DNA of 44,503 nucleotides from Sulfolobales archaeon. Its GTDB lineage: Archaea > Thermoproteota > Thermoprotei_A > Sulfolobales > NBVN01. Positions 10,488 through 30,976 of this stretch are shown here, piece by piece; position 1 is the first letter of the stretch; each line of letters begins with the position of its first letter. Where the stretch lies: NCBI GenBank assembly GCA_038841535.1, contig JAWBTQ010000009.1, forward strand, positions 1 through 44,503, read 5' to 3'. A program made the position numbers and the translations under genes. The notes below the pieces were generated by a model that was not told where the DNA came from, did no database searches, and worked only from the letters and a program-made list of their open reading frames with translations.

Positions 10488-10499
10488 CGATGTTTAGCC

Positions 10500-12406: not shown

Positions 12407-13338
12407 ATGTGAAAAACGAATTAGCCGTTCAAGCTGAAGCCCTTAGCTTAGGTTACGAAGACCTGGGATCGATCTTTTGGGCCGTGAGAGATGTTCACCT
12501 TGAGATAACAAAAGGCAGTTCTTTATGTATAGTAGGTGAGAGCGGTAGCGGTAAAACGACTTTAGGTAATGGTATAGCGGGACTTATACCACCTTACGTT
12601 CGTGTAGCTGGTAAACTCGTTGTTGAAGGAATAGAAGTGATTAAAAACTCCAAAGTAATCGGAGCTAATAAGATTAGGGGTAGGATAGTTACTAAGATAC
12701 CGCAGAACCCGGCAGCATCCCTCAATCCATACATTCGCATTGAGCAGACGTTTCACGACGTCCTTAGGGATGTTCGCGGTATTAGGGACAGGCATGTAGC
12801 GAGAGAAGAAACCTTAAGGCTTATTTCAGCAGTCGGTTTAGAGGAAGATGTCTTATACATGTATCCCCACGAGCTTAGCGGTGGCATGAGTCAGAGGGTA
12901 ACTATAGCTCTAGCTCTGGCTTCTAAGCCCTCCATTATAGTGGCTGACGAGCCTACTAGTAACTTAGATGCCTATTTAAGGGGTTACATAGTTCGGCTTA
13001 TAGGGGATCTAAGTAATAAATTCGGGATATCTTTAGTAGTTATAACTCACGATATCTCCATTGCTGAAGTAGTATGCGAAGACATGGTCGTAATGTTTCT
13101 TGGGGAGATAGTTGAGCGAGGTCGTGTAAGTGATGTAATCAAAGCCCCACTTCATCCCTATTCCAGCGAACTTATTGAAGCCGTTAACTTAGAGAGGGCT
13201 GGTCATAAACCTAGGAAGTACGTTGGTGGATGTGTGTATTATGTTCGCTGTCCATACGCTAGTAGTGAGTGTCTTAAACCCCCTCCACTGATTAAGCTGA
13301 GTAGTTGTAGAGAGGTAAGATGCTGGAGGCTAGCCTGA
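12388..13338 (+). CDS. dppD: Peptide ABC transporter ATP-binding protein
   Basis: Walker A GESGSGKT, YPHELSGGMSQR, ADEPTS, HPY and a Cys-rich C-terminus. Confidence 0.92.
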   Translation: MEAVVLNVKNELAVQAEALSLGYEDLGSIFWAVRDVHLEITKGSSLCIVGESGSGKTTLGNGIAGLIPPYVRVAGKLVVEGIEVIKNSKVIGANKIRGRIVTKIPQNPAASLNPYIRIEQTFHDVLRDVRGIRDRHVAREETLRLISAVGLEEDVLYMYPHELSGGMSQRVTIALALASKPSIIVADEPTSNLDAYLRGYIVRLIGDLSNKFGISLVVITHDISIAEVVCEDMVVMFLGEIVERGRVSDVIKAPLHPYSSELIEAVNLERAGHKPRKYVGGCVYYVRCPYASSECLKPPPLIKLSSCREVRCWRLA

Positions 13339-14261
13339 TGAAGCCTGTTCTTAACGTGCGGGAGGTTTGGGTAGAATTTCATCTCATTACGGGCCTCCTC
13401 GGAGTAAAGAAAAGGGTTTATGCATTGCGAGGGGTTAGTTTTAGCGTACTCGAGAGAGAGGTTTATGGAATAGTTGGAGCTAGTGGGAGCGGTAAGTCAA
13501 CTCTTCTCAAGGTCATCATGGGGTTCGTTAAACCCACGGCAGGGACTGTGGAGATCGACGGTATCGATGTGCTTAAGGTAGATCGAGAAACTAGGAAAAA
13601 CATTACTAAGCGAATAGGGTATGTTTCTCAAAATCCTTTAGTAGCAGTGAACCCGCGCTTTAAGGTGAAGGATATAATAGCAGAACCCCTTAGAGCCGTA
13701 GGTGTCCCAAAGAGAGAGATCGTTAAAATTCTGCCCACACTAGTCGAGGCAGTAGGTCTAGCACCTGAAGTAATGGAGCTTTTACCGTACGAGCTTAGCC
13801 TAGGTATGTTGCAGAGAGTAGTTATAGCTAGAGCTATTGCTGCGAAGCCAAGAATGCTTTTACTGGACGAGCCTACGTCAGCTTTAGACTCAGTTACGCA
13901 ATCTCATATCACGGCTTTATTAAGAGAGCTAAGAGAGCTCTTCGGTTATACAAGCATATTGGTTTCCCATGACCTTAGAGTTGTCTCTCGCTTAGCAGAT
14001 AAACTGGCGATAATGATGGCAGGTCTCATACTAGAAGAAGGTTCAGTAGCCGATGTTTTGGGTAAACCTCTTCATCCCTATACACAAGCACTTGTGGACT
14101 CCCTAAAGTTTAAGGAAATGAGGGAGGTCTTTGTAGCCGACCCAAGAGTGTGCCCATATTACACTAACTGCACTCAGAGACTAGAGGAGAAGTGCCGGAT
14201 ACTGCCACCCCTAGTGGAGCTTAGTAATATGAGAAAAATCAGGTGCTGGCTCTACACCTAA
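13338..14261 (+). CDS. dppF: Peptide ABC transporter ATP-binding protein
   Basis: GASGSGKS, ELSLGMLQR, LLDEPTS, HPYT and a Cys-rich tail. ATG 13338 overlaps the dppD stop (TGATG). Confidence 0.9.
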   Translation: MKPVLNVREVWVEFHLITGLLGVKKRVYALRGVSFSVLEREVYGIVGASGSGKSTLLKVIMGFVKPTAGTVEIDGIDVLKVDRETRKNITKRIGYVSQNPLVAVNPRFKVKDIIAEPLRAVGVPKREIVKILPTLVEAVGLAPEVMELLPYELSLGMLQRVVIARAIAAKPRMLLLDEPTSALDSVTQSHITALLRELRELFGYTSILVSHDLRVVSRLADKLAIMMAGLILEEGSVADVLGKPLHPYTQALVDSLKFKEMREVFVADPRVCPYYTNCTQRLEEKCRILPPLVELSNMRKIRCWLYT

Positions 14262-15071
14262 CTATTCTCTTGAAACTTTTTTGAAGGCTATAAAGATGGC
14301 GCCCAAAGTAATAGCAATCATAGTAGCCGGTATCCACAAGTTATCGATAAATCTAAGAGTAGTTCTTCCTTTTTCATGTCTTAACCTTAAGAAGCCTAGG
14401 TAAGTTAGATCGGACACCAGGTCGTAAGACGTTATGCACCTAGCTCCAACGGCACCCTCGCACAAATCTTCTCTGCAGTTAAGAGGCACCTCACTGGTTT
14501 CGCCTTCTCTATCACTGTATAGAAACTTAGCTTCAATAAATGAAGCTCCGATGGATCGGGCGCGAATAGATACGTTACAAAGCTGAGTAGTGAATATAAA
14601 GTACAATTCTAAGGGATAGTGAGACACGATGTAGTCTTCGGCCCGCCCAATCATGGACGTATTTATGTGAGGGGCAGGATACGTTACGTTGACGCGCTCG
14701 CCCAGGACAATTATGTTGGGTTGCACTATTTCCCTCTCCACTCTAACCAGTTTACTCATCCCAGGTTTTACTGCCTTACCGGCTTCTCCCCCAGGAATAA
14801 TGAAGTCGGTGCTCTCGCTACCTACTTGAAGCTTTATGGTAAAATTCCTGTTTTCGGACGAATCCACGTACGTCACCCTAAATAGGGTGGTATTTATCAC
14901 TCTTGTTCCGATTACAGAAAGTTCGAGAAATCTTCCCTCAATCTGGATGGAGACGTATACGGCAGTAATTAAGTAGAGTAGTGATAGAATGATACTTACT
15001 AAGAATAGTGTCCTCTTTAGTCTCCTTTTCGATCTTTTTCTCTGCCTTCCGTACTTTCTGTATTTACCCAC
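14262..15071 (-). CDS. Hypothetical membrane-anchored/surface protein
   Basis: Very basic N-terminus plus a TM helix, a beta-rich middle with NxT/S sequons, and a C-terminal TM helix with a basic tail. Confidence 0.65.
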   Translation of the reverse strand: MGKYRKYGRQRKRSKRRLKRTLFLVSIILSLLYLITAVYVSIQIEGRFLELSVIGTRVINTTLFRVTYVDSSENRNFTIKLQVGSESTDFIIPGGEAGKAVKPGMSKLVRVEREIVQPNIIVLGERVNVTYPAPHINTSMIGRAEDYIVSHYPLELYFIFTTQLCNVSIRARSIGASFIEAKFLYSDREGETSEVPLNCREDLCEGAVGARCITSYDLVSDLTYLGFLRLRHEKGRTTLRFIDNLWIPATMIAITLGAIFIAFKKVSRE

Positions 15072-15333: not shown

Positions 15334-16695
15334 ATGGGACAAATAATTCAAAGTATGCGATGCATTGAGGGACTCCATTCATTAGCTCTCCTCTTGCTTC
15401 TCGCGATAATAGCCTGCGGAGTCTCTACTTATCTACACGTTCCTTCGAGTTTAGCACCCTTTAGTAACTTTGGGTTAAAGTATAGTGATATCGTCTTTGG
15501 CGTATTTTACCCAAGGTTTTCAGCAGACTACGAATCATCATCTAAGTATTGGTATAACGTAGAGATCTTGAAGCTGTTAATGGAAAGAAAAGTAGTTTGT
15601 CCAGTGCCCTACATTGACTATTCTTTTGAGTATCCTCCGCTTGTTGGCTTATTGTGGTACATTAGTACGTGTTTCTCTATAACAATAACACTCCGAAGTG
15701 AATCAACGTCGCCTTATGCGAGTTCCTATATTCATAGCATCGCGGAGCTACACTTTATCGTAAATGCTTTCTTTCTCTCGCTTTCCCTCCTTCTCTCAGT
15801 CTTCTTTCTGCATAGACTAGTAATAACATCAACTAAAAAGCCCAGTTTTCTGAGTATAGCCACCTGGCTCGTTTTACCATCGACTATACTCTATTCAATC
15901 TATAATTGGGACGTGATTTGTTTAGCTTTTGCCTTAAGTTCCCTCGTAGCGCTACATAGAAAAAAGTACTTTACTTCTGGGGCTTTAATTGGGGCATCTA
16001 TAGCAACAAAACTTATGACCGCATCAATAGCTTATACTATCTCTCTGTACCTGTTATTAAGGTCGCACAGAGGTGAAAAATTACGTAACTTTAGCTTGTT
16101 TCTTCTTGGTATATCGATCTTCGGTGCTACTCCGTACGTTACCTTACTAATGGTCTCACCTAGAGGTTTTTTTGATTTTGTAGCACATCACTCGGCTTGG
16201 TACTGCGAGAACTGTATTTACTTACTGTTTATTCACGACATATTTAGCTATCTCCATAGGACCCTAGCGATAGCTTTAGTAATCATCCTAGCAATTACTA
16301 TAGCACTCCTTATTTTTAATAGGAAAAGTATAGAAGACAGCTCGTGGCTCTATAAGCTATCAACTCTCTCCACGCTGGGAGCTGTACTGTTTAATTACGT
16401 GTTCTCACCACAAATGATACTTCTTTTTTCTCCTCTAGTTATGGTTTTCTTCGTCAAAATAAGTCGAATAGCGTATATAGCATCCGATACAGCAAACTCC
16501 CTCATAATGGTTCTCTTTTTCTACGATAGCGACATTAGGTATCTCCTCAATAGATCTGGCATTCCAGTGGAAGTAAGGTTCAGCCCTTGGACTATAGACT
16601 CACCAGTGCAGTGGCTTGCGGCAATAAGGAACATCCTTTTGCTACTGATATTCGTAGTCGAACTGGTGAGGCTCTCGAGGAGTAAGCCACTATAA
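15334..16695 (+). CDS. GT-C fold membrane glycosyltransferase (GT87/DUF2029-like)
   Basis: Polytopic; motifs YSDI, PYIDYSFEYPPL, NWD, K in helix (ATKL) and VFSPQ. Confidence 0.82.
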   Translation: MGQIIQSMRCIEGLHSLALLLLLAIIACGVSTYLHVPSSLAPFSNFGLKYSDIVFGVFYPRFSADYESSSKYWYNVEILKLLMERKVVCPVPYIDYSFEYPPLVGLLWYISTCFSITITLRSESTSPYASSYIHSIAELHFIVNAFFLSLSLLLSVFFLHRLVITSTKKPSFLSIATWLVLPSTILYSIYNWDVICLAFALSSLVALHRKKYFTSGALIGASIATKLMTASIAYTISLYLLLRSHRGEKLRNFSLFLLGISIFGATPYVTLLMVSPRGFFDFVAHHSAWYCENCIYLLFIHDIFSYLHRTLAIALVIILAITIALLIFNRKSIEDSSWLYKLSTLSTLGAVLFNYVFSPQMILLFSPLVMVFFVKISRIAYIASDTANSLIMVLFFYDSDIRYLLNRSGIPVEVRFSPWTIDSPVQWLAAIRNILLLLIFVVELVRLSRSKPL

Positions 16696-18313: not shown

Positions 18314-19465
18314 TCACCTAGCAAAAATCGCTACCGCCACGGTTCCCCCGGTACCTCCATGGTTTTCCATCAAGCCCTTCTCAGCGTCTTTAATCTGCCT
18401 ATCACCAGCTTCACCTCGCAGTTGCCAGAAGAGCTCTGTTACCATCCCGACCCCCGTAGCACCAATTGGATGTCCCTTCGACTTTAACCCACCGCTAGGA
18501 TTGACGGGCTTCTCTCCATCAAACATGGTGACTCCATCTCTCAAGATCTTAGCTCCCTCCCCCCTCCTTGCTAGCCCAAGCATTTCGTATGCTATCAACT
18601 CAGATATAGTGAATGCATCGTGAACTTCGAGGACATCCACATCTTTAATACCTAGGTTCGAGATCTTGAAAGCTTCTTCAGAGGCGAGCCGAATAGCCCT
18701 TAACTCCGTCATGTCTAGACGCTCGAATATCCCCGGGGTATCGTGGGCTAGTCCAACGCCTTCGATGTAAACCGGTGTATCTGTGTACTTCCTTGGTTCA
18801 CTACTGATTATGAAACCGGCTGCTCCATCAGTTATGAGAGAAGAATCATATAGCTTTAGTGGCCACGAAACGTACGGAGACCTCATTACATCCTCAATAG
18901 TTATCTTTCTACGCATAGCAGCTAGCGGATTTCTCAAACCGTTTTCATGGTTTTTAACTGCAACTAGAGCGAGATCCTCCTCGGTAGCACCGTATTTGTC
19001 CATGTAAGCCTTCGCTATGAGAGCATAGAGAGATATAAAAGGAGCCCCCGCAACTATTTCATCCGGGTGTCCAGCTGCCATTAGAACCTCATTAACTTCT
19101 GCGCTAGTGGGCTGATAGCTCATCTTTTCGTAACCAACTACTAAAACGTTCTTAGCTAAACCACTCCTCACTAGATTCCATGCTATATATAGAGCCGTCC
19201 CACCTGAAGCGCAAGCATTTTCCACTCTCAATCCCTTAGCATTCGACCGTCCCACTAGAGATATAGCGTATGGTGCCGTATGAAGAATCCCACCAAACCT
19301 ATCTGAAAAATTCGAAACAATTACAAAATCTATATCTTCACCACCGATCCCTCTATCAACGGAACTCAAAGTTCCTTGAACAGCTTCCTTTAAGAGATCC
19401 CATGCCTCCTTTTCAGACCTAAGTTCGTACTTGGTGCTATAAGCACCTACTACACCTACCCGCAA
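18314..19465 (-). CDS. Thiolase (SCP2-type/archaeal DUF35-partner acetyl-CoA acyltransferase)
   Basis: Catalytic Cys in ENACASG; EVHDAF, GHPIGATG and a C-terminal NHGG in place of CxGGG. Confidence 0.93.
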   Translation of the reverse strand: MRVGVVGAYSTKYELRSEKEAWDLLKEAVQGTLSSVDRGIGGEDIDFVIVSNFSDRFGGILHTAPYAISLVGRSNAKGLRVENACASGGTALYIAWNLVRSGLAKNVLVVGYEKMSYQPTSAEVNEVLMAAGHPDEIVAGAPFISLYALIAKAYMDKYGATEEDLALVAVKNHENGLRNPLAAMRRKITIEDVMRSPYVSWPLKLYDSSLITDGAAGFIISSEPRKYTDTPVYIEGVGLAHDTPGIFERLDMTELRAIRLASEEAFKISNLGIKDVDVLEVHDAFTISELIAYEMLGLARRGEGAKILRDGVTMFDGEKPVNPSGGLKSKGHPIGATGVGMVTELFWQLRGEAGDRQIKDAEKGLMENHGGTGGTVAVAIFAR

Positions 19466-19542: not shown

Positions 19543-20304
19543 TTACTGGTTCACTTGCTTAAGCTTAAACCTACCTCTTGTAGCGGAAGTACTTTCGAGA
19601 ACTCTCAAAACTAGGTTTATGGCGTTTTTCTCAGCTCTTCTGAGTGTTTTAGCTACGGCCACTCTTGAAATTCCGAAGTCTCTAGCTAGCGAGCTGATGT
19701 CTGTTCTTCTAGGCCACTCATAGTATCCTAGTGCTACGGCTGTAGTAAGTAGCTCTAGCTGTTTCTCAGTTAACCTACCCAAGCTTTCCTCAAGTAATGA
19801 GAGTAATCTGAAGTAGTCTAGCGTGAGCAAGTGTTCAGGTAGCTCCACAAGTTTATACTTCTCGATGTAATCGTATTCAGAAACTTTTCTCATGAATTCC
19901 CTTAAGTGCTTAGCTGTGTGAAATCCCAAAGTCCAGCGCTCGAATCCATTGAAGGCTACCCATGCCGCCAGAGGTGTAGCATCGTGATTGACTACAGCCT
20001 CCATAGTGTTGGTCTTGCTTATCAACATACCTGCCTTTATGTATTTCCTCTTTTTCTGTAAAACTTCATAGCTCTTAACGCTCCCTATAGAACTCACTTT
20101 CTTTAATACTTCATTAATAGTGCCATCATCTCCGAGGACAACAATGTAAATCTTTTCGTAACCTCTTCTAATCTCGGCTACGTTAGCACCTACAACCAGT
20201 ATACTGGAATCCTTAACGTGCTCGGTAAGCCAAACGACTGGACAATCATATTGAACTATATCAAATATTCCAACATACACTACTCCTAGCCCATATACAG
20301 TCAT
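19543..20304 (-). CDS. HTH-10 (bacterio-opsin activator-type) transcriptional regulator
   Basis: C-terminal LTEKQLELL..AVALGYYEWPRRTDISSLARDFGISRVAVAKTLRRAE; N-terminal DCP motif. Confidence 0.92.
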   Translation of the reverse strand: MTVYGLGVVYVGIFDIVQYDCPVVWLTEHVKDSSILVVGANVAEIRRGYEKIYIVVLGDDGTINEVLKKVSSIGSVKSYEVLQKKRKYIKAGMLISKTNTMEAVVNHDATPLAAWVAFNGFERWTLGFHTAKHLREFMRKVSEYDYIEKYKLVELPEHLLTLDYFRLLSLLEESLGRLTEKQLELLTTAVALGYYEWPRRTDISSLARDFGISRVAVAKTLRRAEKNAINLVLRVLESTSATRGRFKLKQVNQ

Positions 20305-20505: not shown

Positions 20506-21333
20506 TTAAGCTGTTTTACCTATGGGATTACTGTATATGAAGCCGGCGAGTAAGTAATTAATAACGCTAGGTTTCTCCAGGATGACGGCGTGTCCTGACT
20601 CTCTAACTTCTACATATGTTGAGTTGGGGATTTCACTAGCTATTATCCTGGAGTATTTAGGTGGTTTTACCCGGTCTTCCTCCGCAGAAACCACTAGTGT
20701 TGGTGCTTGAATATTTCTTAGTAGTGCTGTTAAAGGTGAATCCACAAGCTTCAGGAATGACCTGATAAGATGAGCTGCTGAAGTTAAGCTAAAGCCTCTC
20801 GAGAATGCGTCAACTAGTCTATCAAATAATCCTCTTCCTTGTTGAGCTATAAACCTCTCTGAGTATACGTCGCTAATCCAAGACAATACGAATTTTCTTA
20901 CATCTAGGGAAAGAGCTCCCTCAAGCCATCGCATTGCCGTAATCCTAAGATCCTCTCGAATCTCACTCACTGAAGCTATCACGGTTAAATCGTTGACATA
21001 CTCTGGGTACCTAATCGTGAAAAGCATGGCTACTTCACCTCCGTACGAGGTTCCAACGATATGCACTTTCTTTAAACCAAGGTGGTCCAGTAGGTTTCTC
21101 AGGTCCTCTGCGTGAATTTCTAGACTGTACTGGCTTCCATCATCTGGCTTATCGGAGTTCCACTGTCCTCTCATGTCGTGCAACACTACTTTATAGTTTA
21201 ACCTAACTAAATGGCTTCTCTGAAATATCCAGCTAGCCGTACTCATGAATATTCCATTTAAGAATACCACTGGCTCCCCATCTCCATATACTTCGTAGTA
21301 TAACTTAATACCTCCTACGTTTACTGTAGGCAT
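20506..21333 (-). CDS. Alpha/beta hydrolase (esterase/lactonase, PcaD-like)
   Basis: DMRGQWNS, nucleophile elbow GTSYGG, EED acid and SGHA His. Confidence 0.9.
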   Translation of the reverse strand: MPTVNVGGIKLYYEVYGDGEPVVFLNGIFMSTASWIFQRSHLVRLNYKVVLHDMRGQWNSDKPDDGSQYSLEIHAEDLRNLLDHLGLKKVHIVGTSYGGEVAMLFTIRYPEYVNDLTVIASVSEIREDLRITAMRWLEGALSLDVRKFVLSWISDVYSERFIAQQGRGLFDRLVDAFSRGFSLTSAAHLIRSFLKLVDSPLTALLRNIQAPTLVVSAEEDRVKPPKYSRIIASEIPNSTYVEVRESGHAVILEKPSVINYLLAGFIYSNPIGKTA

Positions 21334-21338
21334 ACTCT

Positions 21339-22628
21339 CTACCTACAGCAAACTACATTATCTAGCAACAGTTTTTCTATATCGCTTTCCGAATAGTCAA
21401 GAAGCTTTGACAAAACGACCGTAGCATCCTGACCGAGTACAGGAGAGCCTCTCCATATCTTCGGCTCATCCCTCATTAAGAACTTAGGAACGATCCCCCA
21501 TCCATTTATTCTATCTCCTAAAGTTTCATCTACCCACTCAATAAAGTCTCCTCTAGCCCTGTAGTGAGGGTCTTCGAGAGCGTCCTTAAGGCTGTATACC
21601 TTAAAGCAGGGAACATTATAGCTCCTCAGTATTCTCAGAACTTCTTCGGCCGTCCTCTGCTTTACCCACGACCTCAAGATGTCGTCGAATCGTTTTCCCT
21701 TATCTGTATGCATGCCTGGAGCGTAGTGAACATCCTTCCATTCTTCAAAGTCTGCTTGTATAGCATCACATAACCTCCTAAAGACGTCGTAGCCTAATGC
21801 TCCAACAAACACGTACTGTCCGTCCTTAGTCTCGAAGATGTCGTAGGGCTGGAAGTATATGTCTTTATTTCCTCGCCTAACTGGAACATCCTTGAGCTCG
21901 GCCGTCTGGATCCACAAGCCTCCGAAGACGTTCGCTATACATTCGAATTGGGCTACATCTATTGTGACCCCTACCCCAGTTTTTTTAGAGTGTATATAGC
22001 CCGCAAGAGCAGCAGATAGAGCGTGTAGAGCTGTTAGATAGTCTCCAGTGTACGGATAGGGCTTATACGGAGGTGACTCAGGAAAGCCGTTTATACTCAT
22101 CCACCCACTATAAGCAGCAGCTATAGCATCGTACGCTGGTAGCCCGAGGTAGTTGGGGTCTCCGAAGTGCCCAAAACCGGATATGTGGACTATAACTATC
22201 TCAGGGTTTACTCTCCGGATGACTTCATCCGTTATACCGAGCTTTTGGTAAGTTCCTGGCATTGAGCTCTCCATCCATATATCGGCATGCCTGAGCAACC
22301 CCAAGAACACTTCCTTACCTTTATCTTTCTTAAGGTCGACAACAATTGACAACATGTTTCTCCTCTCTTGAGCCCACCAAGTGTTAACTCTGCCTTTACC
22401 TTTCTCGATGAACGGTGGAGAGTACCTGTACGTATCACCCCCAGGTCTCTCCACGTGAATGACTTCAGCTCCCCATAGAGCTGCCAAATAAGCAGCGAAA
22501 GGCTGAGCTATGAGAATTCCCGAAGATACTATTCTTAACCCAGATAATGGCCCGGATGCCTCAGTAGCTAAAAGAGGGGCTCTTTTCTTGGGTCCGCTGG
22601 AGATCTTAGATACTAAGTCCTCGAACAT
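21339..22628 (-). CDS. Family III CoA-transferase (CaiB/BaiF type)
   Basis: Motifs GPLSGLRIV, IAQPFAA..WGAEVIHVE, PAYDAIA and PYTGDY (catalytic Asp). ATG 22628 is preferred because a TATA box and operator fall within the ORF-track 5' extension. Confidence 0.92.
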   Translation of the reverse strand: MFEDLVSKISSGPKKRAPLLATEASGPLSGLRIVSSGILIAQPFAAYLAALWGAEVIHVERPGGDTYRYSPPFIEKGKGRVNTWWAQERRNMLSIVVDLKKDKGKEVFLGLLRHADIWMESSMPGTYQKLGITDEVIRRVNPEIVIVHISGFGHFGDPNYLGLPAYDAIAAAYSGWMSINGFPESPPYKPYPYTGDYLTALHALSAALAGYIHSKKTGVGVTIDVAQFECIANVFGGLWIQTAELKDVPVRRGNKDIYFQPYDIFETKDGQYVFVGALGYDVFRRLCDAIQADFEEWKDVHYAPGMHTDKGKRFDDILRSWVKQRTAEEVLRILRSYNVPCFKVYSLKDALEDPHYRARGDFIEWVDETLGDRINGWGIVPKFLMRDEPKIWRGSPVLGQDATVVLSKLLDYSESDIEKLLLDNVVCCR

Positions 22629-22677
22629 ATTGGATTTCCAAAGGTCGTATGTACTGTAGTGCCTTATAGATACCAAA

Positions 22678-22714: not shown

Positions 22715-23707
22715 CTAACTTATCCACTTAAAAGCTATCGCACCCTGCTGGTACCCAACTCCTGAAGCCACTAGTATGACGACCTTATCTTTTTCAACTT
22801 TACCTTGTTCTATAGCGTCGTGGAGCGCCATGTAGATGCAGGCTGAACCAGTGTACCCATACTTATCCATAACCCAATGGGTTTTTGTCTCAGGTAGGCC
22901 AAGGTTTTTCATGACATCGAGTATCGTTTTCAGGCGTACCTGAGTAAATATTACCTGGGCTATCTCGTCCAAGCTTATGTTGGCCTGACTGATCACGTCC
23001 TTTATGAGAACTGGCCAGTACTGGTCGTTGACCGGTGGGTACGCCTTTCTTAGGTCGAGGAAAGGCAGATTCTCGTCTGTTACCTGCTCAGCAACCGGCT
23101 TCCAAGCACCCAAGAATATTCCCCAGTAGTCCCAGAACGAACCATCAGCACGCAGTTTTCCTGCTAAATAGCCAGGTGCGTCTGAAGCAGATAACACTAC
23201 AGCTCCAGCACCATCAGAGAATATCCACTCCCACATGAACTTCCATCTAAGGAACCTAGTCATAGCGTAGACTCCTATTACTAAGATATTTCGATACTTC
23301 GGTTTTCCAGCTATTATGGATGATGCTACCTCAAGCATATATACTGGGTTAGCGCAGGAAGCGTTTATGTCAAAAGCGGGAATCTCATAAGGGCCTCCCC
23401 CTAGAAGACTTTGGACTTTAGGTGCCGTCGGTGGAGATATAGCCTCGGGAGTATCTGTACCTACTATTATCATGTCTACATCCTTTATTGTCAACCCAGC
23501 CCTATCGAGAGCCATTTTAGCAGCTTTAGCAGCCATAGTCGCCGGAGTCTCCTCTGGAGGAGCTATCCTCTTTATTTTCAACCCGGTTCGCTCTATAAAC
23601 AGCGGATCTACTTTAATTCCGGTTTTCCCCTCAAAATCCTCTGGAGTCATTATAATCTGGGGTATGTATACCCCAGTAGATGCTATATATGCAAATCGTC
23701 TGGACAT
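22715..23707 (-). CDS. KAS III (FabH)-like enzyme with a non-canonical active site
   Basis: AFDINASC (Cys retained) and FSDGAGA, but IFTQVR replaces PHQAN and YGYTGSAC replaces GNTSAAS. Confidence 0.9.
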   Translation of the reverse strand: MSRRFAYIASTGVYIPQIIMTPEDFEGKTGIKVDPLFIERTGLKIKRIAPPEETPATMAAKAAKMALDRAGLTIKDVDMIIVGTDTPEAISPPTAPKVQSLLGGGPYEIPAFDINASCANPVYMLEVASSIIAGKPKYRNILVIGVYAMTRFLRWKFMWEWIFSDGAGAVVLSASDAPGYLAGKLRADGSFWDYWGIFLGAWKPVAEQVTDENLPFLDLRKAYPPVNDQYWPVLIKDVISQANISLDEIAQVIFTQVRLKTILDVMKNLGLPETKTHWVMDKYGYTGSACIYMALHDAIEQGKVEKDKVVILVASGVGYQQGAIAFKWIS

Positions 23708-23800: not shown

Positions 23801-24508
23801 CTACAACGCTCCCAAGTAGTATTCTTTAAGTATCTCGGGCTTGATTATCTCATGAGTTTTACCGCTTCTGACTATAGTTCCCATTTCAATAACGTGAACC
23901 GTTTCTGCCGTCTCTAGTACTATAGTCGGGTCTTGTTCGGCCACGATCAATGATATCCCAAACTCGTCTTTGATTCGTTTCAGAATTTCAACAACTCTTT
24001 TTCTCATAATGGGTGCTAGTCCAGCCGAAGGTTCGTCTAGTATCATAAGCTTACCCGCCATCAGTAAGGCTATAGCTATAGATAGCATTTTTTGCTCACC
24101 ACCACTCAAAGTACCAGCTATCTGAGTTTTCCTTTCTTCAATGATCTTGAACAGCCTGGTCACTTCTCTGAATCTGTCTCCACAGTACTTAGACATACTC
24201 GCAGCCAGCTCTATGTTTTCACGTACTGTCAGGGTCCTCAGGACACCCCCTCTTTCTGGCACGTAACCTATACCGAGTCTGACCATTTTATGAGTTGGAA
24301 GCCCAGTGATGTCGTTTCCCTCATACAAAATCCTACCTCTCCAAGGCTTTAGGTATCCCAGTATCGTTTTAATCAGTGTAGTTTTTCCGGCACCGTTAGG
24401 CCCTATTAAGCCAACAACTTCCCCTAAGTTTACGGTAAAACTAACTCCGTTTATCACCACGGTCTTCCCGTATCCGACTACGAGGTCTGCTACTTCAAGT
24501 ATCCTCAC
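23801..24508 (-). CDS. livF: Liv-type (HAAT) ABC transporter ATP-binding protein
   Basis: Motifs GPNGAGKT, YVPE, AGTLSGGEQKM, LDEPSAGLAP and AEQ. Confidence 0.92.
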   Translation of the reverse strand: MRILEVADLVVGYGKTVVINGVSFTVNLGEVVGLIGPNGAGKTTLIKTILGYLKPWRGRILYEGNDITGLPTHKMVRLGIGYVPERGGVLRTLTVRENIELAASMSKYCGDRFREVTRLFKIIEERKTQIAGTLSGGEQKMLSIAIALLMAGKLMILDEPSAGLAPIMRKRVVEILKRIKDEFGISLIVAEQDPTIVLETAETVHVIEMGTIVRSGKTHEIIKPEILKEYYLGAL

Positions 24509-25224
24509 TATATCACCCCAAGGTAAACCTTAGCAACCTCCTCGTTGCTCACTGCCTCACCAGGCTTTCCTTCAAAAATCTTTTTGCCCTCGTTTAGTAC
24601 GACTACTCTTTTAATTAACTTCATTAGGTACCTTAGTTTATGCTCTACTATAACAAACGTCAACTCTTTTTCATTAAGCTTCTTTATTATCTCAATAGTC
24701 TCATCGATCTCACCTGGAGAAAGCCCTGCGAATGGTTCATCTAGGAGTACCAGCTTCGGACTAGTGACTAAAGCTCTCGCTAGTTCAACCATTCTTAGCT
24801 TGTATGGAGTTAAGTTGACGGGGAGTTCTCCGGCTTCAGCCAAGAGTTTTGTGATAGTTAATGCCCAAGTAGTTTTAGCTCTAGCAAGTCTCGTGTCTTT
24901 ATACACGGATCGAGCAGATAGGCTCACGTTATAGTAAACCGGGAGGTAAGGGTATACTCTCATACCCTGAAATATGCGTGAGATCCCCAACACTACTCTC
25001 TTATGGGGCTTAAGTCTTGTAATATCCTTACCTTCAAATACCACTCTACCCTCATCAGGTGTGAGTACCCCCGTGATTACGTTTACGAGGGTAGTTTTTC
25101 CAGAACCATTGGGACCTATTAAACCTAAGAGCTCGCCCCTATAGACTTCCACTGAGACCTTATCGAGAGCTACAATACCTCCAAACTTTTTAGTTACGTT
25201 ATCACAAACTAACAATTTCTCCAC
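24508..25224 (-). CDS. livG: Liv-type ABC transporter ATP-binding protein
   Basis: Motifs KKFGG..AL, GPNGSGKT, LLDEPFAGL, VEH and VYLG. Confidence 0.92.
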   Translation of the reverse strand: MEKLLVCDNVTKKFGGIVALDKVSVEVYRGELLGLIGPNGSGKTTLVNVITGVLTPDEGRVVFEGKDITRLKPHKRVVLGISRIFQGMRVYPYLPVYYNVSLSARSVYKDTRLARAKTTWALTITKLLAEAGELPVNLTPYKLRMVELARALVTSPKLVLLDEPFAGLSPGEIDETIEIIKKLNEKELTFVIVEHKLRYLMKLIKRVVVLNEGKKIFEGKPGEAVSNEEVAKVYLGVI

Positions 25225-25226
25225 TG

Positions 25227-26264
25227 TTACTCACCCGCTACTAGCTCAGCCAGCTTCGACGAAATTATGTGCTTTAGTCTCATGTATAGGTAGTAGACTA
25301 TCCCCTGTGGTCTAAGTAGGACTAATACGATAAGAAGACACATATAAAGTATCACTCTCCATCTTCCTAGGACGTCCCAAAGAACTTCATAAACTAAGAG
25401 TATGAAATAGTTGGCTAAAGCAGGACCCACAATCGTTCCCATACCACCCAGAATAACCGCAGTCAACGGTGGGACTAGAGTGTTCGCTGGGATAAACACA
25501 TCCACAGTCATCGGAGGCCTCATTGCAGCATATATAGCACCGGCAAACGACGCTAGAGATGATGATATGAGGAACCCAACTAGTTTAACTCTGAGGGTAT
25601 TTATTCCAGAAGCTTCCGCTAGAAGCTCGTCTTGACCTACGGATCTCATCATAAAGCCGAAGTCCGAGTAAGCCACTTTGTAGCTAACTATAAAGGCGAT
25701 TATAGCAGCAATAGATGATATGTAGAAGTAAGTTGACTGCAAGAAGAAGGCTCTCTCTCTAACTGGAAGACCTCTAGCATACGAGAAAAGTAGGGGGGAG
25801 TAAGTAATACCGCCCTCGCCCCCTAAGTATAATGAGAAAGGCTGTGACGTTACTATTCCGGCCATAACAATGGGCAGTAGCAGCGACATTATAGAGAAGT
25901 AGGCTCCTCTCACTCTTAAACTAGGAAGAAATATTACTAGACTGAGGACTAAAGATATAGCAGCTGATGGTAAAATGGCGTACTCAACCGACACCCCCAG
26001 ATATCTATTTAAGAGAGCTACTGAGTAAGCAGCACATCCTACAGTGAACGGTACTCCAAGGTTGAGGTAAAACGTTGTTCCTGAGTATAGGTCTAGCGAG
26101 AGAGTTATTAAAAGAAAAATGTTTACTCTAGTTAGAACATCGAGCCAGAAGCCCCTTAACCCAATTACAGGTAACAGCATGTAAATAGTAGCACTCGCGA
26201 GGATAGGTAGGGTTCTCTTCACCCTCTTTAACCTAGAGGGTCTAGCGAATGCCAGTCTACTCAC
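25227..26264 (-). CDS. livM: Liv-type ABC transporter permease
   Basis: Motifs LRVRGAYFSI, DELLAEASGIN, ILGGMGTIVGP and RPQGI. Confidence 0.9.
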   Translation of the reverse strand: MSRLAFARPSRLKRVKRTLPILASATIYMLLPVIGLRGFWLDVLTRVNIFLLITLSLDLYSGTTFYLNLGVPFTVGCAAYSVALLNRYLGVSVEYAILPSAAISLVLSLVIFLPSLRVRGAYFSIMSLLLPIVMAGIVTSQPFSLYLGGEGGITYSPLLFSYARGLPVRERAFFLQSTYFYISSIAAIIAFIVSYKVAYSDFGFMMRSVGQDELLAEASGINTLRVKLVGFLISSSLASFAGAIYAAMRPPMTVDVFIPANTLVPPLTAVILGGMGTIVGPALANYFILLVYEVLWDVLGRWRVILYMCLLIVLVLLRPQGIVYYLYMRLKHIISSKLAELVAGE

Positions 26265-27111
26265 CCCTACCGAAGAGTCCGTGGGGTCTAAAGATTAGCA
26301 CTAAGAGTATTAAAACTAGGGGGGCTACACGTGCTATACCTCCTCCTAGAGCGTATACCATGAATTGTTCAATAAAGCCGTAAATTAGTGATGCGACAAC
26401 AGTTCCTAGAATATTACCGATGCCTCCCATGACTACTATCGCAAAAGCGGCAAATAGAGGTGACCACCCGGCAGTCGGTGTTAAAGCCTTTAATGGAGCT
26501 AGCAGAATACCTGTGAAGGCAGCATAAACTCCAGATACCAGGAAGGTAGTCCTTAAAACCTTTAAGGGGTTTACACCTAACCTCATCGATTCCTCCCAGC
26601 TCTCTGCAACTGCTCTAATCGCTTTTCCAACACTAGTTCTGTAGAGAAAAACGAGAAGCGCTAAGACCATAACTAAACAGGCGGCTGTAACAAGCAGCCA
26701 GTGATTGCTTACTGGAACACCTAATACCGTGGTTGTCCCAGGGTATAGGGGGAGGGTTGCTGGCCTGAGTCCCATTTGAATCCTAAATAGCTCCTCAAAT
26801 ATGTAGGCTACCGCCATCGTGGTTATAAAGACGCTGACTGGGAACTTAATAGCTGGCTTAATAATTGACTCACCTATAGCAAGGCTGACAGCAGCGGTTA
26901 ACAGAATCGAGGCAGGTACTGCTAAGTATAGAGGGGCGTTCAAGTAGTTTAGAAAAACGTACGTAGAGTAACCCGTGAGTACATATAGAGCTCCATAAGA
27001 GAGATTAGGTAACCGAGCAACACCAAAAACTAAAGAAAAACCCAGTGAGAAAACAAGGTACGTCAATGAGTGAAATAACCCAAAAATGAGTATGTACCTT
27101 AGTTCTTCCAA
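26257..27111 (-). CDS. livH: Liv-type ABC transporter permease
   Basis: Motifs LGFSLVFGV..NLSYG, GKAIRAVAE, VVMGGIGNILG and RPHGLFG. Confidence 0.9.
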   Translation of the reverse strand: MEELRYILIFGLFHSLTYLVFSLGFSLVFGVARLPNLSYGALYVLTGYSTYVFLNYLNAPLYLAVPASILLTAAVSLAIGESIIKPAIKFPVSVFITTMAVAYIFEELFRIQMGLRPATLPLYPGTTTVLGVPVSNHWLLVTAACLVMVLALLVFLYRTSVGKAIRAVAESWEESMRLGVNPLKVLRTTFLVSGVYAAFTGILLAPLKALTPTAGWSPLFAAFAIVVMGGIGNILGTVVASLIYGFIEQFMVYALGGGIARVAPLVLILLVLIFRPHGLFGRGE

Positions 27112-27121
27112 CCTTAGTTCC

Positions 27122-28510
27122 CTATGGCCAGGGTATCTCTACCCAGACTCTAGTACCGTCTACAGACTTAGGAAGCAGTAACCTTGTTCCTTGTTCCACT
27201 ACTCTAAACGGCCAAACTACTACTCTTCTGCCCTGCTGCCACTGGAAGTATATTGGGTATATTCTATCCGGAGCTAACTTAGCAGTATGGCTTCTGGTGA
27301 ATTCATAAATACCAGCAGTCCCCACGAAGGTCGAGGTCTCTAAAGCTTTGATGACTTTATCTGTTTCAAACGTTCCAGCCTTTTTAACTGCTTCAGCCCA
27401 CACGTATACTGAGTCGTAAGCATACCATGTCGTAAATAGAGGTTCAGTTCCCAATAGCTTGCTATACTTTTCGTAGAACTCCATCGTCCTAGGTGTAATG
27501 GGGGCTGGGAACCCCCAAGAAATGCATATCAATCCTTCGGCAGCCCCCATAGTCTGGTTGTAGAATATGTTGAGCATAGCATATGTCCCACCTCCTACAG
27601 CTAATAGAGGGACCTGACCTAAGAAGTAGTCCCTCGCATAGACGTAGTCTTCTGTGCCAGAGAACTGCCAAGTTATGTACTGAGCACCAGAAGCCATGAC
27701 TCTGGCAAAGACGTCAGTGAAGGAGGTTATGTCTGCGGGTACCCCAATTGCTGTTACGACCTCTATGCCTTCCTTCTTAGACCTCTCCTGACCGTATAGA
27801 GCGTGTGGGATAACCCATGGTAAGTCCTCATAGATCCACGCGACTTTAGTCCAGCCAAACCTTCTTGAGAGGTACGCCAGCAGGTCCCATGTAGCTGCTG
27901 CCTGAGATGTTGCGTTGACGTATGCTCTAAACCAGTATTTATAATATTCATAGTTCTCCAGTACTTTAGCGTCGATAGCATCACTAACAGCACCAGAAGC
28001 TATAATTAAGACCTCGTAAAGAGGTAGAAGGTCCATTATTGCTAGGGCTTCGTGTGAGCCAAAGACTCCAAATATTACTTTAACCCCATCTTCAGCCAGC
28101 TTCCTATAGCCTTCAGCGGCCTTATCTCCACTCCACTGCGTATCGTAGGGCACTAGCTCGACCTTGTGGTTTAGGACTCCTCCAGCAGCGTTTATTTCCT
28201 CTATAGCAAGCTGTATTGCTGCCAGCATCATTGTTCCTATAGGTAAGTTGAGAGGAAGGAGAGCCCCAACCTTTACAGTTCCAACAAACTGTGGGGGTGT
28301 GGTAGTAGGGGGTGTTACCGGAGTGGTTAGCACGATCGTTGTAGTAGGTCCGGGCAGTGTTAAGGTTTCTCTAAGAGTAATAGTCATATATCTTGTGATC
28401 TCGACTCCAGGGACAGTCGGGGTAGCTACTTGCTGACCTACGAAGTAGCCAACTATTCCAGCTACGACTATGAGTACTATCAGTACTGCCTGAATTATTT
28501 GAGGCTTCAT
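27122..28510 (-). CDS. livK: Liv-type ABC transporter substrate-binding protein
   Basis: N-terminal TM anchor, Thr/Pro-rich linker, VKVGALLPL, AIEEINAAGGV, AYD and FQWQ. Confidence 0.9.
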   Translation of the reverse strand: MKPQIIQAVLIVLIVVAGIVGYFVGQQVATPTVPGVEITRYMTITLRETLTLPGPTTTIVLTTPVTPPTTTPPQFVGTVKVGALLPLNLPIGTMMLAAIQLAIEEINAAGGVLNHKVELVPYDTQWSGDKAAEGYRKLAEDGVKVIFGVFGSHEALAIMDLLPLYEVLIIASGAVSDAIDAKVLENYEYYKYWFRAYVNATSQAAATWDLLAYLSRRFGWTKVAWIYEDLPWVIPHALYGQERSKKEGIEVVTAIGVPADITSFTDVFARVMASGAQYITWQFSGTEDYVYARDYFLGQVPLLAVGGGTYAMLNIFYNQTMGAAEGLICISWGFPAPITPRTMEFYEKYSKLLGTEPLFTTWYAYDSVYVWAEAVKKAGTFETDKVIKALETSTFVGTAGIYEFTRSHTAKLAPDRIYPIYFQWQQGRRVVVWPFRVVEQGTRLLLPKSVDGTRVWVEIPWP

Positions 28511-28584: not shown

Positions 28585-29304
28585 CTACAGTATATTTCTC
28601 TCTTTCAAGAATTTCGACAGCAAATTCACAACAGTACTTTCCATTCCTGATAGCGTGTGAGTCCCACCCTCTACTAAGTGGAATTCCACATCGTATTTTA
28701 GCTCTTTAAGCTTTCTATACAGAGCTTCAGACTGAGACACGGGCACCATAGAGTCTTCCGAACCATGAATTAGCAGCACGCTTCCCGAAATCTTATCTAC
28801 GTAGGTTATTGGGCTAGCTAGCTCGTAAAGCTCCCTGTTTTCGTCGGGTTCTCCGAGAGTAGACCTGACTAAGTCTGCTATGTACTTCTGCGGGCTTCCA
28901 TGGGGAAACTTTGATAGAAATCTATAGAGGTCTGCTAAATCAACCCACCCACCTACACTCACAACAAACCTCACTCTTTCTTGTGTTGATGCTAGCAAAC
29001 TTACAGTTCCACCTAGAGATATCCCTAGGAGCCCGAGCCTCTCAGGGTCAACTCCGCTTAGAACTTTAAGCTTTCTTATAGCTCTTATGGCGACAGCAAC
29101 TCCATCACTGGCGTCAGTATATCGTGGAGCAAAAGCCACCATCCCCAGAGTGGCAAGTTCTTTAGAATAGTACTCGACATCCTCAGGTTTTTGATTGAAA
29201 GCGTGAAGAACAACTGTAGCGGGTTTCTGCTCCGCCAGAGATGAGTAGTAGAGATAACCAGGTACGTCCTGGGTCTTCACCTTTGAGATGCTCATAGTTA
29301 GCAC
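28585..29304 (-). CDS. Alpha/beta hydrolase (S9/dienelactone-hydrolase-like esterase)
   Basis: VDPERLGLLGISLGG (Ser), IHGSEDSMVP (Asp) and GGTH (His). Confidence 0.88.
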   Translation of the reverse strand: MLTMSISKVKTQDVPGYLYYSSLAEQKPATVVLHAFNQKPEDVEYYSKELATLGMVAFAPRYTDASDGVAVAIRAIRKLKVLSGVDPERLGLLGISLGGTVSLLASTQERVRFVVSVGGWVDLADLYRFLSKFPHGSPQKYIADLVRSTLGEPDENRELYELASPITYVDKISGSVLLIHGSEDSMVPVSQSEALYRKLKELKYDVEFHLVEGGTHTLSGMESTVVNLLSKFLKERNIL

Positions 29305-29969: not shown

Positions 29970-30251
29970 ATGAGCTCTTTAGTCAAGGAGGGAGTGCTGG
30001 GAATAGTGTTAGGATATAGAAAGGGTTTGAATAGGCAGTACGTTAGCCAAGTCTACATAAAGGTACTGACACAAATCGAAAATGTTCATTCTCTCATCGG
30101 TCGTAAGGTAAAGGTTAGTGATAGCTATGGAAATATCTACTTGGGAAGAGTAGTCAAAGTCCATGGTTCCGGAAAGAATGGTGTTGTTATAGCTGTGTTT
30201 AGCAGGAACCTACCGGGGCAGCTGATAGGCTTTGAGGTAGCTATTCTCTAA
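29970..30251 (+). CDS. rpl35ae: 50S ribosomal protein L35Ae
   Basis: GIVLGYRKG..RQY..QVYIK, IGRKV, GRVVKVHG..GVV.A.F.RNLPGQLIG. Confidence 0.92.
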   Translation: MSSLVKEGVLGIVLGYRKGLNRQYVSQVYIKVLTQIENVHSLIGRKVKVSDSYGNIYLGRVVKVHGSGKNGVVIAVFSRNLPGQLIGFEVAIL

Positions 30252-30976
30252 CATGAGTATAGGATTGCTCGAACGGCTACTTCTAGTAGTTCGCTGCTAT
30301 AACCAGCAAATAATATTGACTTGGAGTATGGGACTTCAAAGAGAATAGCATATTCATTTAAGTAAGCCAAGGGTTTAACGTAGTACTTCAGGACCGTCTT
30401 CTCGGTGTTTGCTATAGTTAACACAATCTTACTGTTAAAGTTAAGCCCGTAAAGTACTGGGTGACTAGGCCATCGCGGGCTTATGAAACCCTCTGCGCTT
30501 ACTATATCAGCATCGCTCAGAGTACTCAAGTCGGATACCAAAGGATTAAATAGAGTTTTAACTATTTCGCTAACTCTACCTTCGCACGATACATAACATC
30601 TCCCCCCCTCACTTAAGTCACCAAGAACTCTCTCGAGAGACTCTATCAACAGGCACTGACTCCCAGTTTTAGAAATACTCCCGGTCTCAGGAACAGGTTT
30701 TCCATCTATCCACGTATCTTCGGAGACTTCATAATCTGCTTGTTCGATATTGCAGGACTCGCAGATTTCAGGGTCTAAAGCTAGTGATGAAGGAGGAACT
30801 ACTATGTGGTAAGTCTTTTTGCGACCTAACCAAACGGGTACTACAGAGGGTTTTGTTATAAAGATCGCTCCATTAGTTCCTCCACACTTAAAAAGTTCTC
30901 TCACTATGTTAAGAAATACTGCTCCATGCCTTGCTAGATACAGTAAGTAGCCTGAGCGTAACCTCAGCTCCGTCAC
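30248..30976 (-). CDS. Hypothetical protein
   Basis: 242-aa ORF with normal composition and no recognised motif. Confidence 0.6.
   Translation of the reverse strand: MTELRLRSGYLLYLARHGAVFLNIVRELFKCGGTNGAIFITKPSVVPVWLGRKKTYHIVVPPSSLALDPEICESCNIEQADYEVSEDTWIDGKPVPETGSISKTGSQCLLIESLERVLGDLSEGGRCYVSCEGRVSEIVKTLFNPLVSDLSTLSDADIVSAEGFISPRWPSHPVLYGLNFNSKIVLTIANTEKTVLKYYVKPLAYLNEYAILFEVPYSKSILFAGYSSELLEVAVRAILYSC

Follow-up and report, generated by a model that had tools for sequence, protein, structure and literature searches.

The stretch of DNA analyzed here, called the window, is the 44,503-nucleotide forward strand of contig JAWBTQ010000009.1 (assembly GCA_038841535.1) from a Sulfolobales archaeon whose genome assembly comprises 1.56 Mb in 40 contigs and is 83.8% complete. 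The gene of interest lies on the minus strand and encodes a protein related to ketoacyl-acyl carrier protein (ACP) synthase III (KAS III, or FabH) in which the catalytic triad Cys-His-Asn (CHN) reads Cys-Thr-Tyr (CTY). It belongs to a row of minus-strand genes in the order esterase, importer, KAS, coenzyme A (CoA)-transferase, hydrolase, HTH_10 regulator, thiolase, and short-chain dehydrogenase/reductase (SDR). The coordinates of these genes and of the active-site codons are collected in Table 1.

Table 1. Genes and active-site codons of the KAS gene row, in minus-strand order (aa, amino acids; ABC, ATP-binding cassette)
Feature	Positions	Strand	Basis
Second esterase-like hydrolase (Peptidase_S9 / BD-FAE / DLH type), head of the row	28585..29304	-	Pfam
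Branched-chain-amino-acid-type ABC importer (Peripla_BP_6 binding protein at 27122-28510, 2 permeases, 2 ATPases), directly upstream of the KAS gene	23801..28510	-	Pfam
KAS III (FabH)-fold protein, Cys-Thr-Tyr clade, 330 aa	22715..23707	-	ATG start; Pfam, NCBIfam, AlphaFold2, trees
Cys118 codon, conserved nucleophile, equivalent to E. coli FabH Cys112	23354..23356	-	Alignment, 121/121, translation
Asn227-to-Trp231 codons; both residues family-specific and invariant, aligned with tunnel residues Ala216 and Leu220	23015..23029	-	Alignment
Thr255 codon, at the place of FabH His244	22943..22945	-	Alignment, 121/121, translation
Tyr285 codon, at the place of FabH Asn274	22853..22855	-	Alignment, 121/121, translation
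Family III CoA-transferase, closest to CaiB (1xk6, 7.3e-60), directly downstream of the KAS gene	21339..22676	-	Pfam, NCBIfam, solved relatives
Alpha/beta-hydrolase with Ser96-Asp220-His248 triad, orthologue of the KAS-flanking hydrolase in other phyla	20506..21333	-	Pfam, alignment
HTH_10 transcription regulator within the gene row	19543..20304	-	Pfam
SCP-x-type thiolase	18314..19465	-	Pfam, NCBIfam
FabG/PhaB-like SDR with N-terminal extension of about 75 aa	17341..18324	-	Pfam, NCBIfam

The KAS-like product matched the Pfam domains ACP_syn_III (1.5e-15) and ACP_syn_III_C (1.2e-22) and, over residues 54-151 only, Thiolase_N (29.6 bits). Every NCBIfam cut-off was missed, with scores of 178.6 versus 292.1 bits for the fabH model TIGR00747 and 184.8 versus 249 bits for NF006829/PRK09352. 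In HMMER searches, the best solved relatives were true FabHs (2ebd, 5.4e-41; 4ryb, 7.9e-41; E. coli 1hn9, 6.9e-36), to which identity was 28-32%; CerJ (7.9e-12), ChlB3 (1.5e-8), and an archaeal HMG-CoA synthase (3.5e-7) were much weaker matches, and DpsC (about 2e-6) and OleA (about 3e-5) were the weakest. An AlphaFold2 model computed from a 16-sequence alignment had a mean pLDDT of 89.8 and a pTM of 0.90 and matched FabH structures with TM scores of 0.87-0.90; the predicted fold is that of FabH/KAS III.

Active site and phylogeny of the Cys-Thr-Tyr clade

In HMMER alignments to solved FabHs, Cys118 of the INASC motif fell on the nucleophile at the same helix N-terminus, FTQ aligned with PHQ (Thr255 at His244), and GYTGSA aligned with GNTSAA (Tyr285 at Asn274), with E. 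coli numbering taken from the 9ka2 alignment. The His and Asn of FabH are required for malonyl decarboxylation. An earlier note on this DNA, made from the letters alone, had described the same arrangement, a retained Cys with FTQ at the His place and GYTGSAC at the Asn place; the alignments bear this description out, and Cys-Thr-Tyr was present in all 121 sequences compared, namely, the query and its 120 best homology-search hits, which ranged from 93% down to 42% identity and included hits named Sulfolobales, Thermofilaceae, Thermotogaceae, Fervidobacterium, Caldilinea, Pyrinomonadaceae, and Polyangiaceae.

The replacements extend well beyond the triad. The substrate tunnel of E. coli FabH, as listed in the accessible part of a docking paper, is formed by Met207, Gly209, Asn210, Val212, Phe213, Ala216, Leu220, His244, Ala246, Asn247, Ile250, Asn274, and Phe304 (PMC6897290), and the 9ka2-derived numbering agreed with all of these residue names. 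When the 121 family members were compared with 110 canonical CHN sequences, six further positions were invariant in the family: Tyr147 (Glu/Asp of a GAE motif in 109 of the 110 canonical sequences), Asn227 (Ala216, with Ala in 91 of 110), Trp231 (Leu220), Pro224, Met280, and Gly287. Nearly invariant were Ser315 (118 of 121; canonical Phe304), Cys290 (117; Ser279), Thr/Ser261 (117; Ile250), and Ser/Thr91 (116; Phe87). In addition, Lys or Arg occupied the Arg151 position in all 121 members, and the loop glycines Gly316 and Gly318 were retained; Arg151 is, we assume, the FabH residue that stacks on the adenine of CoA. From these alignments, the acyl-Cys half-site looks preserved, and the second-substrate side appears to have turned polar (Tyr147, Asn227, Trp231, Thr261, Ser315, and Ser/Thr91); Asn227 may represent a carboxamide relocated within the pocket. 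Compared with FabH/KAS III (EC 2.3.1.180; 2ebd, 4ryb, 1hn9, and 6x7r), the clade thus shares the fold, the two Pfam domains, the nucleophile Cys, Lys/Arg151, and the Gly-rich loop; it differs in having Thr for His244, Tyr for Asn274, Ser for Phe304, Ser/Thr for Phe87, Asn for Ala216, Trp for Leu220, and Tyr for the GAE Glu/Asp, all (near-)invariant, and in falling below the NCBIfam cut-offs, on a separate branch, and apparently outside any ACP or type II fatty-acid synthase (FAS II) context.

The earlier note had considered that another His/Asn pair might stand in the active site. As to the His, comparison of the 121 members with the canonical sequences gave no family-specific His; as to the Asn, the invariant Asn227 at the Ala216 place may, judging by the alignment, reach the pocket. 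His277, which is present in 118 of the 121 members, yet is also His in 16 of the 110 canonical sequences, was tried as a substitute catalytic His and rejected on account of these canonical occurrences and of its absence from three of the 121 members and from several distantly related representatives of the clade.

A search of 1.84 billion representative proteins returned 147 at E <= 1e-30, of which, after removal of rows shorter than 290 aa, 134 remained with the query included. The triads in these rows were 18 CTY (counting the query), 1 CNY, 1 CTE, 110 CHN, and the four single variants SHN, CQN, FHN, and CHD; the CTY-type rows ranked at the top, and canonical rows started near E 1e-44. One row, the CHD variant P0254, appeared to contain a frameshift and was left out of the tree. 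Among the remaining 133 rows, FastTree placed the 20 CTY-type rows on one side of a branch with a support of 99, and this separation from canonical FabHs was reproduced by IQ-TREE (LG+C20+F+G4; SH-aLRT 99) on 55 rows, comprising the 20 CTY-type rows and 35 randomly chosen CHN rows. The Cys-Thr-Tyr clade has a single origin, and it splits from FabH independently of CerJ, DpsC, and ChlB3. The window protein carries every feature by which the clade is defined, Cys118, Thr255, Tyr285, Asn227, Trp231, Tyr147, and Ser315, together with the tree placement.

In a pattern scan with one genome per species, at least 584 relatives were confirmed among at least 599 matched stretches. The best 80 of these relatives carried labels of 14 bacterial and archaeal phyla, with 28 loci in Chloroflexota, 17 in Acidobacteriota, 8 in Thermotogota, 7 in Gemmatimonadota, 6 in Myxococcota, 3 in Thermoproteota, and 1 or 2 in each of ten further taxon labels. 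Close to the window genome, the KAS gene was found (E <= 1e-40) in 8 of the 9 further genomes from its genus and in none of 9 other genera of the family or 12 other families of the order, a patchy order-level distribution that suits an accessory operon. Among the best 80 loci, the nearest relatives outside the archaea were those of Thermotogota, at 50-55% identity. This likeness, together with the patchiness, may reflect movement of the operon from one hot-spring lineage to another.

Genes around the clade in 81 loci

The neighborhoods of the best 80 relatives and of the window, 81 loci in all (L001 and so forth below), were compared by clustering crude open reading frame (ORF) calls, naming the clusters by Pfam and NCBIfam, and mapping them on the loci by tblastn. 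Unless stated otherwise, the counts refer to same-strand genes no more than 3 kb from KAS; many loci were cut by contig ends, and 3 kb was available on both sides in 47 of the 81. A CoA-activating enzyme was found in 61 loci, an AMP ligase in 58 and a family III CoA-transferase in 3 (the window, L001, and L002), and such a gene lay directly downstream of KAS in 43 loci. Alpha/beta-hydrolases were present in 47 loci, transporters in 40, SDR or MaoC proteins in 33, and a thiolase in 3 (7 within 8 kb); 5 loci had none of these families. The transporters included ABC importers with a Peripla_BP_6 binding protein, TonB-dependent receptors, and carriers of the MFS and SSS families. A plasmid of the cultured Bacteroidota species Chondrinema litorale (NZ_CP111049) had the order FabG, KAS, SSS carrier, AMP ligase, hydrolase, and TonB receptor. 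In L055 and L084 (Chloroflexota plasmid), the gene downstream of KAS encoded a CoA-transferase of the AcetylCoA_hydro family, and L084 also carried a thiolase. No solved relative of the AMP ligase was found at 1e-40. Three unrelated CoA-activating families in one slot suggest that the KAS-like protein handles the CoA thioester of an imported acid, and this is the strongest argument for such a role. Two or three Cys-Thr-Tyr KAS paralogues were observed at L014, L019, L036, L043, L050, L061, L070, L073, and L075, mostly in Chloroflexota; for most copies a separate AMP ligase came next, which suggests parallel modules for related substrates.

Characterized KAS III homologues with altered triads act as acyltransferases, and the protein could likewise be a biosynthetic or remodeling acyltransferase of the CerJ/DpsC/ChlB3 type, in which a ligase-made acyl-CoA would load Cys118 and a polar acceptor would receive the acyl group on a hydroxyl or amine. 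The tight pairing of KAS and ligase (43 of 81 loci) and the polar second-substrate site favor such a role, and the KAS III fold is shared with CerJ (3s3l), DpsC (4xs7), and ChlB3 (7eqi). CerJ, DpsC, and ChlB3 transfer acyl groups without condensation, with the triad altered at the Asn position and the His kept, whereas the clade is without this His; they stand in antibiotic biosynthetic clusters, whereas the clade is found among binding-protein-dependent importers, TonB receptors, symporters, and esterases rather than biosynthetic genes. Moreover, the ligase is replaced by CoA-transferases at some loci, and the matches to CerJ, ChlB3, and DpsC (8e-12, 1.5e-8, and 2e-6) are far more distant than those to FabHs (5e-41), so that an acyltransferase of this type appears unlikely.

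SDR and MaoC genes tended to exclude each other: among 80 loci, 24 had SDR only, 18 had MaoC only, 1 had both, and 37 had neither (Fisher p = 0.004, a value that is overstated because the loci are kin). An SDR lay immediately beside KAS in 18 of the 81 loci and MaoC in 1, with MaoC within 8 kb in 18. The split largely followed phylum, with MaoC in Acidobacteriota and Gemmatimonadota and SDR in Chloroflexota and Thermotogota. Only one intermediate, (R)-3-hydroxyacyl-CoA, is common to FabG-like reductases and MaoC hydratases, and the near-exclusive alternation of the two makes this compound look like the common intermediate. No neighbor cluster was identified as an acyl-CoA dehydrogenase, although no search aimed at that family was made.

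The MaoC genes also bear on a retro-aldolase acting on 3-hydroxyacyl-CoA in the manner of Ltp2 and Sal, with Tyr (and Cys) as acid/base and a MaoC hydratase as partner. Ltp2 and Sal have lost the classical nucleophile Cys, which is invariant here, and they differ from the clade in their SCP-x thiolase fold, DUF35 partner, and steroid substrates. Sal reportedly relies on Tyr302 and Cys304 and Ltp2 on a pair of Tyr residues, with a hydratase as partner in each case (PMC12329534); they offer a precedent for remodeling the active site of a thiolase-superfamily enzyme around Tyr (and Cys) next to a MaoC-type hydratase. The 18 loci with MaoC within 8 kb are in keeping with such a reaction. Against it stand the single locus with MaoC immediately beside KAS, the cassettes of the SDR type, which would go unexplained, and the fact that the cassettes showed no enzyme that handles aldehydes; a retro-aldolase is given a slim chance, ranking below the acyltransferase.

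The profile of the KAS-adjacent hydrolase matched the solved enzymes 6eb3 (Est1, 1.4e-77), 5egn, 4uhc, and the PcaD enol-lactonase 2xua (2e-50), and the Ser-Asp-His triad was retained. Its best NCBIfam match was PcaD, at 138.7 and 110.7 bits, both below the cut-off of 255.85. Matches of the hydrolases to polyhydroxyalkanoate (PHA)-depolymerase models were weak and confined to the N-terminus, and the family Esterase_PHB was not found in the window's own genome (83.8% complete); a polyhydroxybutyrate (PHB) link was rejected on these grounds. In one Anaerolineae metagenome-assembled genome (L018, 5810-8017, plus strand), hydrolase and KAS lie in one open frame, deposited as the 624-aa protein P0271. 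This could be a naturally fused gene or an artifact of assembly, and it is the only fused form. In Acidobacteriota, a second hydrolase with a signal-peptide-like N-terminus was observed at L012 (9535-10407), L022 (9618-10487), L023 (9628-10497), L046 (4611-5498), L063 (3435-4292), L068 (3030-3887), and L076 (9603-10460), placed after the ligase, with a TonB-dependent receptor on one side and an MFS carrier on the other; the N-terminus suggests periplasmic esterase action ahead of uptake in these cassettes.

The PcaD matches recall the lower beta-ketoadipate pathway, PcaD, PcaIJ, and PcaF, which the core trio would mirror if the KAS III fold served as the thiolase. In such a retro-Claisen reaction, Cys118 would attack C3 of a polar 3-oxoacyl-CoA, Thr255, Tyr285, and Asn227 would hold and protonate the leaving acetyl-CoA enolate, and CoA would free the acyl-Cys. 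Hydrolase, CoA activation, and KAS would then be three consecutive steps, as in the gene logic of hydrolase, CoA-transferase, and thiolytic enzyme in the Pca pathway, with the superfamily and the Cys nucleophile shared. An SDR stands immediately beside KAS in 18 loci, and the low thiolase counts (3 of 81 within 3 kb and 7 within 8 kb) imply that most cassettes are without another thiolytic enzyme. To run the FabH Claisen step backward, it would presumably be enough for a proton donor to stand where FabH has its decarboxylation residues. Unlike degradative thiolases, however, the clade belongs to another subfamily, matches Thiolase_N only in part, and is without a His or second-Cys acid/base pair; Ser315 stands, we presume, in the loop where a thiolase has its second Cys. 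The literature searches yielded no thiolase built on a KAS III fold, and we know of none. The 18 of 80 loci with MaoC and without SDR would give no 3-oxoacyl-CoA unless the imported acid were already 3-oxo, the role would be redundant in the window and in L084, where a thiolase is already present, and a plain acetyl-CoA leaving group leaves such a polar pocket unexplained. Retro-Claisen cleavage is therefore regarded as possible, at a probability well short of even.

Two further arrangements were considered and rejected. An Ole-like beta-lactone or olefin pathway resembles the loci in setting a KAS III-like protein, an alpha/beta-hydrolase, an AMP-binding enzyme, and a dehydrogenase side by side; OleA keeps Cys-His-Asn, however, its match was at E 3e-5, and the loci differ from OleABCD in the FabG-like SDR, in CoA-transferases that replace the AMP enzyme, and in importers, which dominate. 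A trio of thiolase, DUF35 protein, and KAS, as in HMG-CoA synthase or PhlABC complexes, was discounted on the thiolase count within 8 kb (7 of 81) and on the N-terminal extension of the window SDR, for which no Pfam match was found even at E up to 1. This extension was also observed at L001 (7112-8029), and the window SDR frame and the end of the thiolase gene share 11 nt. On visual inspection, the extension may resemble the OB-fold half of DUF35 proteins. In Sulfolobus, a DUF35 protein joins thiolase, ketoreductase, and dehydratase, according to the accessible text of a preprint (10.1101/2024.07.05.601840).

Elsewhere in the window, a separate peptide/nickel-type ABC importer row was observed at 8868-14261 on the plus strand, in which Pfam named the binding protein (SBP_bac_5) and the first permease (BPD_transp_1) ahead of three further ORFs. 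No Pfam family was assigned at E <= 1e-5 to the ORFs at 14262-15071 (minus, 269 aa), 15334-16695 (plus, 453 aa), and 30248-30976 (minus, 242 aa), which gave weak hits or none at E up to 1. A scan for sigma-70 promoters and terminators gave nothing above shuffled sequences, the sigma-70 model not being applicable to archaea, and a tRNA gene search found none.

Fatty-acid initiation

Relatives of the KAS-like protein are named ketoacyl-ACP synthase III in public sources, and the ESM Atlas holds generic FabH names only. The earlier note had predicted automated mislabeling as fabH or HMG-CoA synthase, of which the former was encountered and no label of the latter kind was seen. It had also held that the protein is not a fatty-acid initiation enzyme, a view that is well supported by the missed NCBIfam cut-offs, the catabolic context, and the ACP and FabH searches that follow. 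No match to the PP-binding/ACP domain (PF00550) was found in the window's own genome (83.8% complete), with a control search positive in 11 of 14 known genomes. Likewise, no conserved ACP-sized ORF was found in the 81 loci; the idea of an ACP hidden as a small ORF was rejected, each cluster of conserved 55-125-aa ORFs being a shadow frame of a known gene. The sole other KAS-like match in the same genome was at 24% identity. Among five bacterial carriers of the clade, four had another hit that passed the fabH cut-off (361-408 bits), and the one such hit read from each of the four had Cys-His-Asn; in the fifth, a 1.6-Mb Thermotogae genome, the best fabH hit reached 200 bits. The neighborhood is one of uptake and catabolism, not of fatty-acid synthesis.

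A decarboxylating condensing enzyme, either a CoA-based FabH or a polyketide synthase starter enzyme, would have to use Asn227, Thr255, and Tyr285 as a substitute oxyanion hole. The alignment of the invariant Asn227 with tunnel residue Ala216 is consistent with this, as is the fact that the nearest characterized relatives are true FabHs, and the SDR and hotdog-fold neighbors resemble a FabG, FabZ order. The search for a family-specific His was negative, however, His277 not being clade-specific; ACP was not found in the 83.8% complete genome or in the cassettes, where no enoyl reductase was seen either; importers and esterases occupy the cassettes; and a canonical FabH is already present in four of the five bacterial carriers. 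Continued condensation is accordingly the least probable of the readings weighed here.

Ester thiolysis as the leading reading

The earlier note had proposed a non-decarboxylative acyltransferase, such as one performing thiolytic depolymerization. This idea fits the gene context and provides the leading reading, although in its specific form it is tentative and its probability is well below even: the protein would be a CoA-dependent thiolytic enzyme, acting without decarboxylation, that cuts the ester in a CoA-activated O-acyl-(R)-3-hydroxy acid via an acyl-Cys118 intermediate. The CoA thioester substrates, the lack of decarboxylation, the bond that is cut, the roles of the Tyr, Thr, Asn, and Ser residues, and the imported compound are all features that we infer.

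In this scheme, the importer would take in an ester-containing acid, which esterases would trim, and the free carboxyl would be activated to a CoA ester by the CoA-transferase in the window or by a ligase elsewhere. Cys118 would attack the ester carbonyl and take the distal acyl group of a substrate such as a 3-hydroxyalkanoate dimer; a proton for the departing 3-hydroxyl would come from Tyr285, with Thr255, Asn227, and Ser315 assisting. Attack of free CoA on the acyl-Cys would follow, and each half would thereby be released as acyl-CoA. The products would be thioesters of the (R)-3-hydroxyacyl-CoA type, which the FabG-like SDR and thiolase of the window, or a MaoC hydratase elsewhere, could carry into central metabolism.

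Several observations argue for ester thiolysis. The nucleophile, the Lys/Arg151 position, and the Gly loop are kept, which suggests that the machinery of the acyl-Cys half-reaction is retained, and the malonyl-decarboxylation residues are replaced in every member, with a second-substrate side that is apparently polar. Gene order indicates a CoA thioester as substrate or product, and the nearby hydrolases and importers indicate ester catabolism and uptake. The closest relative of the window transferase is CaiB, which acts on a 3-hydroxy acid. Each window gene would gain a role of its own (transferase, KAS, SDR, and thiolase), and the polar pocket and the pattern of SDR or MaoC would also be accounted for.

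Other observations weigh against ester thiolysis. To our knowledge, all characterized KAS III-like acyltransferases keep the His as general base, and there is none here. Energetically, CoA thiolysis of an oxo-ester runs slightly uphill, and the operon esterases could cut all ester bonds alone, which would make the reaction unnecessary. The substrate is a guess: the solved relatives of the binding protein are only of the generic Leu/Ile/Val type and uninformative on this point, and Esterase_PHB went unmatched in the window's 83.8% complete genome. The exclusivity of SDR and MaoC is confounded by lineage. In addition, the residue roles rest on alignment to E. coli FabH, and the least confident part of the AlphaFold2 model is residues 201-230 (block-mean pLDDT 51-76). 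Retro-Claisen cleavage is nearly as likely as ester thiolysis, and a modest share of the probability, larger than that of the acyltransferase, the retro-aldolase, or the condensing enzyme, remains for other explanations.

In the literature searched, which lay outside the subscription journals, no account of a Cys-Thr-Tyr KAS III family was found, and the accessible text of the preprint on archaeal fatty-acid synthase contains no mention of "FabH," "KAS," or "synthase III" (10.1101/2024.07.05.601840). Hundreds of genomes (at least 584 stretches, with one genome per species) nevertheless carry a gene labeled FabH in which every known residue of decarboxylative condensation is replaced, and inferences about lipid synthesis that rest on this label are wrong here. 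The consequences are greatest for archaea, because the debate on how fatty-acid membranes originated would be affected by a "FabH" there. Behind the Cys-Thr-Tyr clade there would instead be a widespread catabolic step. If ester or beta-keto bonds are indeed converted to CoA thioesters on a KAS III scaffold, then this would be a new reaction type for the thiolase superfamily and would offer a thermostable catalyst that makes acyl-CoAs from esters. It is possible, if doubtful, that the clade constitutes a new enzyme class, an "ester thiolase" that turns the oxo-esters of hydroxy-acid dimers or oligomers, once tagged with CoA, directly into CoA thioesters by way of an acyl-Cys. If so, one activation would yield two acyl-CoAs, providing a previously undescribed, energy-saving route for the scavenging of polyester fragments of the PHA type or similar.

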